Source of the DNA: Octopus vulgaris | Taxonomy: Eukaryota | NCBI GenBank assembly: GCA_951406725.2 | Contig: OX597818.1 | Location: 103,912,001-103,976,000, forward strand | Direction: 5' to 3' | Length of the DNA: 64,000 nt | Part shown: positions 19,010-60,185 of the stretch, piece after piece | Layout of the letters: the number at the start of each line of letters is the position of its first letter | How positions within the stretch are numbered: the first letter of the stretch is position 1 | Notes under the pieces: generated by a model | What the model saw: only the letters and a program-made list of their open reading frames with translations | Told to the model about the DNA's origin: nothing | Databases searched by the model: none | Made by a program: the position numbers and the translations under genes

Positions 19010-19165
19010 CAGGCACAGGTTAAGTGGTAGGTTTATTTCTCAACCACAGGTTCGAACGGTGGGTTTCATTCTGTGGTACGTTGGTTATGTGTTTTCTACT
19101 ATATTTTCAGGTCGACTAAATTTTTGATTGGATATTGTAGAGGAAAACAGTCGAATAACTCGTGT
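19010..19165 (+). mobile_element. SINE family A 5' half, decayed; the PLE follows in its internal (TA)n
   Basis: aggcacagg..gtggtagg..caaccac..ttctactata..gtcgactaaa. Confidence 0.55.
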
Positions 19166-19201
19166 ATATATATGTATATATATACATACATATATATATA
19201 T

Positions 19202-20819
19202 AAACAAATACATCACAGAAACCTGCAAACTCTCCTCTGACATCCACATCAACATCAAAGCACCGGAGGACCTAAAACTAAGGCCCATCGTGGCTGGCAC
19301 CTCCTGTAAAACACATCGCTTGAGTAATTTCCTAGACATCCTTTTGAAACCTTTCCTTACTCACATCAAAAGTTTCATTAAGGATGATCTCGACATGCTC
19401 AAACACCTCCCGAAAACAGTTAACGAGGAGGCGCTCCTGGTATCCTTTGATGTCATCAACCTCTACACCAACACCCCACATAAATATGGTATTGAGGCAA
19501 TTGATTTCTGGCTAGAAAAACACCCTGAGACATTCCCTGACCGCATTCACAAGACCTTTATTACGGAATCACTCAAGTTCATTCTGACAAACAATTATTT
19601 CCTCTTCGATAACACACACTACCGTCAAAAATGTGGTATTGCGATGGGTACCAAGGCTGCACCAGTCCTTGCGAACCTCATAATGGGCTTCTTCGAACTA
19701 TCACTCTATGAGATATCACGCCAGAAATTTGGACATGTTTTTCACACCTACCTAATGGAAAACTGGAAAAGGTATTTGGATGATTGTTTCATCATATGGA
19801 AAGAATCTTATGAAAAGCTTCTGGAATTCCAAACCATACTGAACAACATACATCCCAACATCCAATTCACTATGGAATTCAGCAAACATCATCTCCCTTT
19901 CCTTGATCTCCTAATTATAAAAACACCTAAGAAGCAAATCATAACAGACATCTAGCACAAACCTACAGACTCACAACAATACCTCCTCTTTAGTTCATGC
20001 CACCCAAAACACACCAAGACAAATATCTCTTTCAATTTAGCTGAAAGGGTATGCACTCGAGAAATACGCCTTCAAGACCTCAAAAAAACACTATTACAAC
20101 GCCAATATCCCTCCACCCTTATAGAGTATGGAATAAAACGCGCCAAAGAACTAGACATTATACTGAAAACCACCCAACCCAACAACACACACAACCCCAA
20201 AATACTTCCATACATTTCCACCCACAACCCCCAAAATACCGAAGCATACACCGCAATCATACAAAACCTCAATCTACTGTCAACATTCCCCAAAATAAAA
20301 AAACATTATAAATACACACAAAATCCTCAAGTGTAAAAGGCAACACAAATCTTTAAAAAAACTCTTGACAAATGCCAAACTTCACACACCACATCCACCC
20401 CAGCAGTTAAAAAATGTGCACGCCCAAACTGTGGCACCTGCCCCTTCGTACTGGAAGGCTCTGAATTTATCTTCAAACAAGGAACGAAGTTTAAAATCAA
20501 TACCAACTTCTCCTGTTCCTCTTAGAACCTTATCTACGTTCTCACATGCGCCGGGTGCCCACATAATTATGTTGGACAAAGGAGCCTCCCTTTACGTAAA
20601 AGAGTAGCGGTCCATAAAGAACAAATAAATCTCCCGGAGTACCGGCAAATTCCACTGAGTGGCCACATAGACTCATGCTCTAAAGAAAAAAATCCTAAAT
20701 TTAACATATTCCCCTTCTACCAATGTAAAGACGGAATCACCACACAGGAGAGAATTAACAAGGAGAATCTTTTTATTGAAAAATTCAAAACGCATCTTAA
20801 TATGCAAATTCCTCGTTGA
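19202..20819 (+). pseudogene. PLE reverse transcriptase + GIY-YIG endonuclease, disrupted
   Basis: LRPIVAG, LVSFDVINLYTN, GIAMGT, WKRYLDDCF, FLDL; stop at 19953; KKCARPNCGTC linker; NLIYVLTCAGCPHNYVGQ; stops and frameshifts. Confidence 0.95.
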
Positions 20820-20938
20820 TCATACTTCTTTTTTCTACCTCATTCTTCATGGATGGACTAATACAAATATATAAGGATACCATACAGTCATCACTTCAAG
20901 CTAAAACTTATATTCTTTATTTATCATTATTATTATAG

Positions 20939-38220: not shown

Positions 38221-38389
38221 TATATGTATGTATGCATGCATGCATGTATATGCGTGTGTGTCCGTGTATGTGCCCATATATACACTTACAAACACACTTT
38301 ATATATATATATATACATATATATGGTTGGAAGCCCCAGCATGGCCTCAGCCGGATGGCTGAAACAAGTAAAAGAGTAAAAGAGTGAAT

Positions 38390-38770
38390 ATATAAAATAC
38401 AAAATGAGACAAGAACGCAAGTCATCCGGTCAGCTAGGTGATACAGAAAAGGACAACAACAAAACATCCTAATAGATGATACAAAGAAAACAAGGACGAG
38501 TCATTCGAAGTTTTCTTTCTGCAGTCAATCACCAGATTATCCTCGCAATTTCGGCTGGTTATTCTTGAGATTTCTCTAAACTGGCCAGGTCCAAGGAAAA
38601 ACTAAGCTAGGATCTTATACACAAACAAGGACGAAAACAAACGGACAAAGTTGCGCAAATATAAATACAATAAGAATAATTACAGGACATAACAACCGGT
38701 GTCTTTCAACTAAGGATGAATTGAATTAAGCTGGCGCGTGTGGAAATGAAGCCTTACGGCAGAGATATTG
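38390..38770 (-). mobile_element. Unclassified repeat carrying a decayed rearranged hammerhead-like motif (38518-38592)
   Basis: Same segment order and helices as 49607-49686; similar TTGTTTTC/GTCC-rich flanks. Confidence 0.55.
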
Positions 38771-44574: not shown

Positions 44575-46168
44575 CAGTAGTTTTATTTTTATAGCGTGCT
44601 TTCACTTCACTACCGAGCACAGCTCTGTGTGCCTTGGGTATGTGCTGTGATTTGTTGTGATGCTCTGATGGCTATTGTATGGAAAGTGTTCTGCGTAGGA
44701 TGTGTGCAGTGCCTAGTCGTGCAATTTTCTGTATGTTATATGTGTTTGTAAGTCCCGGTGTTTTTGTTATGTATTTGTCTGAATATTTTTTTATCATGCC
44801 TAATGCACCTACTATGATAGGAATTGTTTCTGTTTTCAGATTCCTAGTTACCTCTATTCTAGTTACCTCTATTCCCAGGTCTTTGTATTTTGAGAGTTTC
44901 TCCATTTCTTTTAGAGACACGTTGTCATCAGCCGGTATTGATACATCAATTAGAAAGCATTTTTTTTTCTTCATGATCTCTGACAACTATATCTGGTCTG
45001 TTGGCCTTAATTTCTCTATCTGTGTGTATCGGCATATCCCAGAGTATGGTTGCTTTCTCGTTTTCTGTGACCTTTTCTGGTGTGTGCCTATACCATCTTT
45101 TTTCTGTTGTTATTCCATAATGTTGGCATAGCTTCCAATGTATGTAGGTTCCAACTCTGTCATGTCTGTGAATATATTCCTTCTTAGCCAGGACTGGGCA
45201 GCTAGAGATAATATGATTTATTGTTTCTTGTCCATCTCCACATATTCTGCAGTTACTTGTAATATTTCTTTTCATTACATGTTTTTGGTAATTTCTGGTG
45301 GGAGGCTTTGGTCTTGTGCTGCAATTAAAAATCCCTCTGTTTCTGCTTTGAGTCCTGAGCTTCTCAACCATTGCTGGGATTTTTCTTTGTCTATTTCTTT
45401 TGCGTTTAGTTTAGTCCAGTATTTACCATGAAGGGGCTTTTCTTGCCATTGTTTTATCATGGTTCGTTGCTGTTCTATTTTTAGTTTGGATTTCATTTGT
45501 TTTATAGCTTTTGTTGTTTCTTCATCTTCTTCTTCTTCTTCATGTTTATTAGGTGGTATGATTTCTTGTTTGTATTTGTCAGCTTCCTTAAATACTGAGA
45601 ACAGTTTTTTGTTTTGCTCGTGTTTTGCCGCTATCTGGATCAGTTTTCCTTCCTTCTGAAGTAGATATTTTTGCAGTCCTATGGTGGTTATTTTATAGTA
45701 GTTTTCCAGCTGGATAAGGCCTCTACCACCTTCTATACGTTGTATATATAGTCTTTCTATGTCAGATTTTGGGTGATGCATCCTAGATCCTGTCATTATT
45801 TTTCTTGTTTTCCTATCTATGTTGGTCAGTTCATTTCGTGTCCAGTTAAGGATATTGTAGCTGTAACTTATAACTGGGACAGCTAAAGTGTTGATACCTA
45901 TTATCTTGTTTTTAGCATTGAGCTCTGTGTTTAGTATTGATCTAACTCGTCTATAATATTCTTTTTTTATTTTCTCTTTCATTTGTGTGTGCTGTGTCTT
46001 ATCTAGTTCATGGATTCCTAAGTATTTGTAAGTTTGGCTTTGGTCTAATTCTTTTATTTCATTGGTTTTATCTAGTGTGATGTTGTTACTCTTAACTAGT
46101 TTTCCTCTTTCAGGGTTACTTTGGCGCATTTTTTATTCTGATCCAAATTTCATATCTATTTCTTTGGT
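44575..46168 (-). mobile_element. 5'-truncated R4/Dong-clade non-LTR retrotransposon (RT C-terminus, CCHC knuckle, restriction-like endonuclease) inserted in (TAA)n
   Basis: YKYLGI, HHPKSDIERLY..GGRGL, CRICGDGQETINHIISSC, RHD, RPDIV, IDVSIP..K..KY; two frameshifts; (TAA)n on both sides. Confidence 0.93.
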
Positions 46169-49175: not shown

Positions 49176-49908
49176 GACTTCATTCTTTGATTTCCTTTCC
49201 TCTACTTAACTTGTCTCTTCCTCTCTCTCATTCTTTACTCTCTCTCTCCCCCTCTCCATTCTTCATGGTTTCCTCGCAGCCATTCCCCTTCTTCTCTCCC
49301 TTTCTCTTGCTCCTCCTCCCCCCTTCCCGTCGTTCACCCGCGACGAGACTTCCGCTGCTGTCTCTCTGGCCTGGCCCTCTCAAGTTAATGGACGACATTC
49401 TTTTTGCTCCGCTCGTCGTTCATAAAAAATTCCGCGTTCGCAATACTTTTTTTCGTTCGGCGTTAACAGCCCTTCTTATCTTGTTTTTCCTTGTCCTGTC
49501 TTTTACTGTTTATAATTTGTACTGTCGTTACTGTCCTGTTTTTGTTACCATTTTTTTACCCCTCTGCGAAAAGATCTCAGAATTTTAATTGATTTGCTTT
49601 TCGCAGGAAGGAAAGTTTCTTGTCGAAGATACGTCTCGCTTTTATCCTTCGAAACGTAGAGTAGATGAAACCATAGCGACTGAAGAAGGTTTTTTTTCTT
49701 TGTTTTCTTTGTGTTAATTGTCCTGTACTCTATTTTTTTGCTGTTTTTAAAAAAATGTCCAGTTCCTTTGGTTTGTGTCTATGTTTTCGTTTCTCATTGT
49801 GTTCGACGTCCTTTTGGTGTCCTGTACTCATATATGCGTGTATATGTACATGTAGAGGTAGTTACGTACATATATGTTTATATATATGCATATGTTTTAT
49901 TTTATTTA

Positions 49909-56769: not shown

Positions 56770-56811
56770 ATACGACACATGTTTCGACCCGTTCTGGGTC
56801 TCTTCGGGTAC
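56770..56811 (-). ncRNA. Minimal type-I HHR-like motif with intact stems (U4C variant)
   Basis: gtac-CCGAAGA-gaccc agaac gggtc-GAAACATGTGTC-gtat. Confidence 0.75.
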
Positions 56812-57655
56812 ATCAATAAGATATATATGTGTATATTTATCGGACTGTAAAAGAAAGTGTGCATGATACAACAACATAGGCGTGTAAGTAAAATGAGAGG
56901 AGAATATAGGGAAACAAAACCAAAAAAAATGTGTGTTCTCATAATGTTGATAACAGAAAGTTGGAAATTGAGCTTCAGTTAGATTTGGTTGCTGGGTATT
57001 ATGGTATTATAAATGTGAACTACACTACGATTGCATGCTTATATAAACGGCTGCTTTATATCAATTATAAATCATTGGAAACATGCTGAGACTTACGTAT
57101 TTATTAGTGAAGTACATTTCTAACATACTACTTGAGGCTGTTATTTAAATAAACATCATTCAAAACGAGCAAAATGAAACAATAAAAACCTGTTCTCCAA
57201 TGACAACATGTGACGTGAAGTATTAGAGAATGGAACAGCAGCAATCAGCGAGCCAAAGATAGAGACAGAAAATAGAATCGTATAAATGCCATGTATATAT
57301 GTCCTTATAGCGTCCCACTGATAGATGCTTTTATAATTTGAATAGTGGTTTTAGTTCAATATACAAACTTAATATAAAACTATCCAGGAAGTTTCTCATA
57401 AAGGGTATATTTTTTTTGCTTTTTCCTTACTTCATAGCATTTAGAGATTTACATAAGTACACAAACATATACACACATATGTATGTATATATATATATAT
57501 ATATATGTGTGTGCTTGTGTGTGTGTGTCTGCGCGTGTGTGCGTGTGTGTGCATGTGCGTGCGTTTGTGTGTATAAAGACCTTAGTTATACTGTTGGTTC
57601 GATGGTCATACGAGTGAGGAGTCTAATGTGGACACTACATTAGCATACTGGCATG

Positions 57656-59325: not shown

Positions 59326-59951
59326 GTGTGTGTATTAGTATGGCACATCATATGTGATGTGATGTGTAAAGTCATGTGGTGTAGTGAGGAGAAGATGGGG
59401 AGGGGGAGAAGAGGGGGGAGAGAAGGGGAGGGGAAGAAGAGGGGGAGGAGGGGGGGAAGAGGAGAGGAGGGGGGAGGGGATGAAGGAGGAAAGAGGGAGA
59501 GGGGGAGAGAGAAGGGGAGAGAGGGAGTGAGGGAGCAGAGGGAAGGGGAAGAGGGAGGGAGAAAGAGGGAAGAAGGGAAGGGGAGTAGGGGTGAAAGGAT
59601 GAAGGACTGAAGAAGTAGGGGTCGGGGGGAAAGGATAGGTGAGGAGGGGGGAGAGGGGGGTTAGATGAGGAGGGGGGAGAGTTGAGACCAAATGGCGTAT
59701 AAGAGCGAAGAGAGAAGATTAATTCCTGTTCACGGCGCAAACGGGAATCCGGATGGCCTCTGTGTAAGGACAAACCGAACACAGATAGGTGTTGCAAGGA
59801 GTGACCGGTGGAGCGGAAATGGCGTGAGACCGGTGTGTCGTTCGCAAGGTGGATGTCACGAAGGTGTTCCGCGAACCGGTCAGCCAAGCGGCGTCCCGTT
59901 TGTCCGATGTACAAGGAATTGCAGAGAGAGCAAGAGATATATATATATATG

Positions 59952-60028
<77 letters not shown>

Positions 60029-60029
60029 A

Positions 60030-60185
60030 AGGGTGAAAAGGAACACACGAGTTGATATATATGAAAAAACAAGTCAAAATAGAAGATGCTAAGATAATTT
60101 TATAAAGAACATTTCAGTACTGGTTTCGGTCATTTTGAGACCTTTTCAACTGTTATTAAAAGAAAAGATTAAAAGAAAAGTTTTT
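60030..60185 (-). mobile_element. PLE-type 3' end with HHR-like motif (60115-60152), U3-A8 variant
   Basis: cag-TTGAAAA-ggtc tcaaaat gacc-GAAACCAGTA-ctg. Confidence 0.65.

Follow-up and report, generated by a model that had tools for sequence, protein, structure and literature searches.

Positions 38388..38767 of the window (the whole 64,000-nt stretch of Octopus vulgaris DNA analysed here) hold, on the minus strand, a decayed and 5'-truncated copy (~380 nt) of a repeat that we designate family A, with 76-84% identity to 39 other scored copies. All the hammerhead ribozyme segments claimed in a preliminary description of this DNA are present on the minus strand, at 38518-38590, in the order claimed there, and alignment to a real copy of the family (L087) places a 29-nt deletion just upstream. 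From the 5' end of the motif onwards, the features are the following.

38616..38617, minus strand: junction of the 29-nt deletion; helices IV and V have lost their 5' strands here
38591..38598, minus strand: hairpin V, 3' strand, directly 5' of G10.1; partner deleted in this copy
38586..38590, minus strand: stem II, 5' strand (10.1-10.5), moved to the 5' end of the motif; ACCTG here, GGCTG in the family
38578..38584, minus strand: helix T, 5' strand (brace between stems I, II and III)
38575..38577, minus strand: kink-turn-like motif, non-bulged strand (GA), between helix T and stem III
38564..38574, minus strand: block S (stem III 3' strand, AUC triplet, stem I 3' strand)
38571-38574, minus strand: stem III, 3' strand
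38569-38570, minus strand: UH of the AUC triplet
between 38569 and 38568, minus strand: predicted cut site
38564-38568, minus strand: stem I, 3' strand
38545..38557, minus strand: block G (stem II 3' strand, GAAA, stem III 5' strand)
38553-38557, minus strand: stem II, 3' strand
38549-38552, minus strand: GAAA
38545-38548, minus strand: stem III, 5' strand
38539..38544, minus strand: kink-turn-like motif, bulged strand (3-nt bulge, then GA, U)
38532-38538, minus strand: helix T, 3' strand
38518..38529, minus strand: half of block C (stem I 5' strand and core, without stem II after it)
38525-38529, minus strand: stem I, 5' strand
38518-38524, minus strand: core, CTGCAGA here, CTGAnGA in the family
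38512..38517, minus strand: helix IV, 3' strand, directly after A9; partner deleted in this copy

The copy had been called decayed, and it is: its core reads CTGCAGA and lacks CUGAnGA, G10.1 is replaced, and the deletion lies immediately upstream. Its predicted fold is no better than those of shuffled sequences (energy folding, z = -0.22), an Rfam scan returned no hammerhead at this copy among the 150 best matches listed, and a strict descriptor that found a second element of the window, at 49607, missed it. Taken alone, the window copy is unconvincing, and it would be inactive, ordinary debris; the case rests on the family.

Family A is a high-copy repeat, with 1872 exact matches of its 3'-end 27-mer in the genome; a similarity search gave 4726 first-look candidates, of which 40 were scored. 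The full unit measures ~730 nt and contains no ATG-initiated ORF longer than 82 aa. In a 3'-anchored sample (the first 100 of the 1872 matches), 89 of 100 copies have (TA)4 within 40 nt, 14 are directly followed by the start of the next unit, and only five reach the 5' start of the unit. The preliminary description had expected that extending copies in the 5' direction would lead to an autonomous reverse transcriptase (RT) partner; instead, the copies end at ~730 nt or earlier without an RT ORF, and family A is thus non-autonomous, namely, a non-coding, (TA)n-targeted, 5'-truncated retroelement of ~730 nt.

For motif counts, we used 94 distinct copies that span the motif, with some positions counted in 91. 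Their majority sequence restores the CUGAnGA core and the stem pairings, the outcome that the preliminary description had proposed to look for: stem I is TCAAG/CTTGA, stem II GGCTG/CAGCC, stem III GCAA/TTGC and helix T CCAGATT/AATCTGG, with an AUC triplet and the core CTGAGGA (CTGAnGA in 72 of 94 copies). The base 5' of CAGCC had been given as C (CCAGCC) and is mostly T in the family. GAAA is kept in 84 of 94 copies, U16.1 in 89 and C17 in 88 of 91, and both GAAA and the NUH triplet stand in register with stems I-III. Paired cells number 432 of 463 in stem I, 439 of 468 in stem II, 356 of 375 in stem III, 586 of 647 in helix T, 605 of 650 in hairpin V and 441 of 557 in helix IV. Many family A copies (L002-L030) carry deletions across helices IV and V, in a sample biased by a query that itself carried such a deletion.

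In the terms of Eckert et al. 2023 (PMC10085705), whose text we follow here, a hammerhead consists of block S (the cut site), block G (GAAA) and block C (CUGAnGA with two stem strands). The order in the octopus motif is S, G, C, as in type SGC, with crossing stems I and II, and not the three-way junction in circular permutation of types I-III. However, the stem II 5' strand is displaced to the front of the motif, and in family A none of the four bases after A9 pairs with the stem II 3' strand; thus, block C is opened between A9 and G10.1. Two further helices, absent from the preliminary description, occupy the ends of this opening. The last base of hairpin V immediately precedes G10.1. The 3' strand of helix IV immediately follows A9, and its partner lies directly 5' of V; together, the two helices would account for how the interrupted A9/G10.1 link is kept in place. 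Energy folding of the intact copy L087 predicts IV, V, T and III; pseudoknots are beyond the folding program.

Helix T and stem III are separated by a 3-nt bulge, with each strand carrying tandem GA; both GA are intact in 81 of 94 family A copies. Such a bulge followed by tandem G-A/A-G pairs matches the kink-turn consensus. Positions 1b, 2b and 3b of the kink-turn-like motif are kept in 92, 93 and 93 of 94 copies, respectively, and bulge positions 1 and 3 vary.

The same design, with changed helix sequences, occurs in six families, of which families other than A are listed below.

A2: young sister of A (L222-L281, L312-L369), with AUA in place of AUC at the predicted cut
B: the 49607 family; its window copy, at 49557..49691 (start approximate), plus strand, has six helices including IV and V
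C: tail of the Naiad Penelope-like element
D: relative of the 49607 family (L435-L459), with a GUU triplet and a 10-bp helix T
E: tail of a LINE that we presume to be HERO-like

The families were sought in 1.145 Mb of fetched flanks, and six is therefore a lower bound. Within these loci, a relaxed descriptor matched copies of all six families and nothing in each of three shuffles. Families D and E were found with a descriptor that ignores helices IV and V, and their majority sequences (25 copies each) then revealed both helices. The block order, the G10.1-C11.1 pair and linkers of 0 nt between IV and V, between V and II, and between the core and IV are kept in all six families; such linkers would correspond to the geometry of a perfect four-way junction. 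The linker from stem I to stem II ranges from 1 to 6 nt across families and is 6 nt in A. When stem II pairing directly after the core was allowed at offsets of 0, 1 and 2, it reached 0, 1 and 1 of four bases in A and A2 and 0, 0 and 0 in E; B and D permit a weak, GU-rich pairing of the ordinary SGC kind with one extra A. The GA pairs of the kink-turn-like motif are intact in 17 of 19 A2 and 27 of 33 C copies, and by eye the motif is not evident in family E.

Similarity between the window copy and the 49607 element had been put forward as family-level covariation. A and B do not align, so that their agreement represents recurrence of architecture and not covariation; the claim stands on A2 and the subfamilies instead. 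Alignment between A2 and A is confined to the ribozyme region (150 nt, 69% identity), within which A2 shows two two-sided pair changes in helix T, two in stem I and one pair added to stem III. Within A itself, 11 of 91 copies have G-C at stem I position 3 and 68 have A-U, a change that is probably one event. A2 copies are 98-99% identical, with units of ~700 nt in head-to-tail arrays of 2-4, suggesting that the family was likely active very recently. Contigs of runs guessed to be RNA contain A and A2, and were counted neither for nor against, as contigs reveal neither cuts nor strand nor circles; one contig guessed to be RNA includes an A2 end-to-start joint, and the same joint exists as tandem DNA.

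Taking these observations together, we consider it likely that intact copies form a hammerhead with all core bases in an SGC-like order, its chain open between A9 and G10.1 and the gap closed by a predicted four-way junction, and that the RNA cuts itself after AUC. In favour of this reading, shuffling the upstream flank produced adjacent V and IV helices in 31 of 2000 trials in A and in 82 of 2000 in B; against it, nested folding is no better than in shuffles for five of the six sequences (z from -1.4 to +0.1; D, z -2.7). An unlikely alternative is that the hammerhead is real and helices IV and V are incidental, stem II being a plain pseudoknot with a free 5' strand, or tandem units or separate molecules acting in trans, like the dimeric hammerheads of Penelope elements. 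Helix IV is the weakest helix (a U-U at the junction pair in 33 of 91 A copies; 139 of 188 cells paired in C), short and mismatched in subfamilies. Units also occur head to tail, and dimer cleavage by Penelope hammerheads is cited in Eckert et al. 2023 (PMC10085705). Against incidental helices, every one of the six families places IV directly next to A9 and V directly next to G10.1, with linkers of 0 nt, although the helix sequences have turned over completely, and hairpin V is as consistently paired in A as the counts above indicate.

Cutting of the RNA predicts that copies derived from the 3' product begin immediately downstream of the cut. In 3'-anchored samples (A as above; the first 100 of 329 matches for A2 and the first 70 of 268 for B), 5' ends fell within -3 to +15 of the predicted cut, an interval set after viewing the lists of ends and with duplicated loci kept, in 15 of 67 copies at risk for A (4.4 expected), 11 of 83 for A2 (2.7 expected) and 17 of 52 for B (2.5 expected). 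The next 19 nt upstream contained 3 of 52, 1 of 72 and 1 of 35, respectively. In A2, the interval did not differ from the next downstream one (P 0.20). Among the 30 C loci, two, 600 nt apart, start exactly at the predicted cut and may represent one event. The 5' ends peak at +5 to +12 and not at the cut; this stretch is an AT-rich linker able to anneal to (TA)n, and AT microhomology may contribute. In family A, ends also pile up at a similar rate near -120 (9 of 40). We regard the pile-up as support for, and not proof of, the predicted cutting.

The offset of this peak, the second pile and the GUU triplet of family D would also fit a conserved structure that does not cut in the cell and serves as an RT binding or pausing signal, the pile of 5' ends reflecting stalling or AT microhomology. 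We judge this improbable: CUGAnGA, GAAA, NUH and the G10.1-C11.1 pair are all kept across the six families, and the ends fall sharply just 5' of the predicted cut in three families, including B, which has no TA at the cut itself.

The preliminary description had suggested a class of mobile elements using this ribozyme variant. Six families bear this out, two of them being the tails of protein-coding retroelements. The motif is located 3' of Naiad RT remnants in 8 of 30 loci, and a 21-base motif of the published octopus Naiad tail has 200 exact occurrences in the genome. All Naiad matches there are short or broken. In the part of the supplement of Craig et al. 2021 (PMC8557442) consulted, the tails of Naiad_Ovul and Naiad_Obim and one further record parse by eye into the same order. 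According to the consulted text of that paper (PMC8557442), Naiads target (TA)n and form partial tandems with tails, and lack canonical hammerheads, the motifs noted being limited to a core or half a core, with half a core in eight cases and only that half in Naiad_Ovul.

Family A shares with Naiads (PMC8557442, as far as consulted) the insertion into (TA)n, 5' truncation, partial tandems, inverted 5' pieces and a tail of 30-40 nt, the traits expected of a Naiad derivative; unlike them, it lacks an RT ORF, and its sequence matches none of the Naiad loci compared. A blastn comparison of A, A2, B and D units with 31 Naiad loci and one HERO-like locus yielded four short matches, none of which was a shared 3' end and which look like separate insertions, and two A motifs were absent from the portion of the Craig et al. 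2021 supplement searched (PMC8557442). Among the Naiad and HERO-like loci compared by blastn, no autonomous element shares sequence with A, so that we infer its RT partner from target and structure only. A Naiad partner is in tension with the near-identity of the A2 copies, given that cephalopod Naiads are described as long inactive in the consulted text of Craig et al. 2021 (PMC8557442). The genome also contains many copies of an RT family with open frames of up to 753-782 aa and ~34% identity to the Naiad RT piece (weak matches, for example, G000:C3:61677166-61677576), which is a candidate young mobiliser.

Family E lies directly after the stop codon of an ORF with an RT domain (PF00078), a CCHC knuckle and a PD-D/ExK-like end, an element that we take to be HERO-like. 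In one locus (L466, G000:C16:26697000-26703999), the element's own 3' end, including the ribozyme, precedes its 5' end, with 3634 nt between the ribozymes. Repeated partial copies of this LINE also form two clusters on one contig (C29, L460-L465).

In the mechanism that we propose, helix IV would stack on hairpin V, which would let stem II keep its stacking on the A9-G12 pair. A kink-turn at its stem III end would likely bend helix T, and this helix would brace stems I and II, which would pair as pseudoknots with the loop of stem III. The ribozyme RNA would cut after NUH, trimming head-to-tail or read-through transcripts to unit length, and the units would be copied into (TA)n by the enzymes, RT and endonuclease, of a Penelope-like element that target and structure suggest to be Naiad-like. 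Copies of linear cut RNA would be short and begin immediately 3' of the cut, and longer and tandem copies could arise from RNA left uncut or re-ligated into a circle. More tentatively, and with somewhat less than even confidence, we propose that this is a seventh natural hammerhead wiring, open inside the catalytic strand, closed by a four-way junction and shared as a processing ribozyme by Naiads, HERO-like LINEs and their non-coding parasites, that the units circularise, and that copying round the circle yields pseudo-LTRs, tails and tandems in two unrelated classes of retrotransposon. On this view, A2 and other young families would be live retrozymes of a new type.

Type SGC (HRIMA-1 and variants) is the closest known design: as described in the consulted text of Eckert et al. 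2023 (PMC10085705), it shares the S, G, C order, a bracing helix, two pseudoknots, all core bases and a short linker from the stem I 3' strand to the stem II 3' strand, typically of 3 nt compared with 6 in A. Block C is unbroken in SGC and split between A9 and G10.1 here, where, in addition, the stem II 5' strand and a brace strand come first, the extra helices IV and V are present, and the host is an animal genome. Thus, the octopus motif is SGC-like and fails the unbroken block C of that type, which makes the design a new hammerhead variant. The same text treats the blocks as uninterruptible, reports validation of type SGC and places SGC RNAs in the genome of no known organism (PMC10085705). 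An ordinary SGC reading was tried and rejected for A, A2 and E, in which the bases after A9 do not pair with stem II. It is very improbable that the motif is an ordinary SGC hammerhead, despite the block order and bracing helix that match Eckert et al. 2023 (PMC10085705, consulted in part), or a chance arrangement in a repeat, despite the poor fold of the window copy alone, given that the lack of stem II pairing after A9 (0 of 4 bases in A, A2 and E) contradicts the former for A and the descriptor found nothing in shuffled loci.

Other systems are more distant. Non-LTR retrozymes are described, in the part of the preprint consulted (bioRxiv 10.64898/2026.07.22.740005), as non-coding tandem units with one type I hammerhead each, proposed to be non-autonomous Penelope-like derivatives with a circular RNA intermediate. 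A and A2 likewise consist of non-coding tandem units with one ribozyme per unit; however, their predicted hammerhead is non-circularly permuted and split. The PK hammerhead of Zhan et al. 2024 (PMC11300833, consulted in part) has the core with extra helices, a pseudoknot and the A9-G12 and G10.1-C11.1 pairs in common with the octopus motif, but holds those two pairs in one short stem with pistol-like connectivity, and its helix IV is a different element. Another natural departure at A9/G10.1 is the CChMVd plus-strand hammerhead, which, in the text consulted (PMC3705267), tolerates one extra base there; the departure is a single inserted nucleotide, whereas in the octopus motif the chain is opened and two helices are added. 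According to the consulted part of PMC1636495, natural hammerheads seldom have AUC, yet this triplet is active. A 2026 NAR paper (PMC13725137) mentions hammerhead variants with additional helices, citing three references, and in the consulted parts of that paper and of Forgia 2023 (PMC10162972) there is no variant such as the one described here. This wiring is not described in the literature searched, mostly open-access text without figures or full supplements.

If correct, the proposed wiring would break the rule, as given in the consulted text of the six-permutation paper (PMC10085705), that the CUGAnGA block cannot be interrupted, and would move non-circular permutations from metatranscriptome contigs to animal genomes, in thousands of copies. 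Naiads, which lack a canonical hammerhead according to the consulted text of PMC8557442, would turn out to have a ribozyme after all, and the failure of standard descriptors and Rfam to pick up the fold would be explained. That a LINE with a restriction endonuclease and a pseudo-LTR carries this fold too would point to a common RNA-processing route in unrelated retrotransposons.

Several other retroelement remnants lie in the window. At 56770-56813, on the minus strand, we identified a type I hammerhead match (RF00163, 32.1 bits, below the gathering threshold of 34; E 0.00046) with the core CCGAAGA, probably the decayed hammerhead of another Penelope-like element. A Penelope-like RT remnant, presumably Neptune-like, occupies 19128-20820 on the plus strand, where a CxxC linker and then a GIY-YIG-like end come after a weak PF00078 match; the remnant terminates close to a (TTA)n tract. 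The minus strand at 59372-60073 encodes the endonuclease end of another Penelope-like element, with a motif that we take to be GIY-YIG-like and without a Pfam match. Finally, at 44946-46132, on the minus strand, (TTA)n tracts flank the broken C-terminal portion of a non-LTR retrotransposon ORF.
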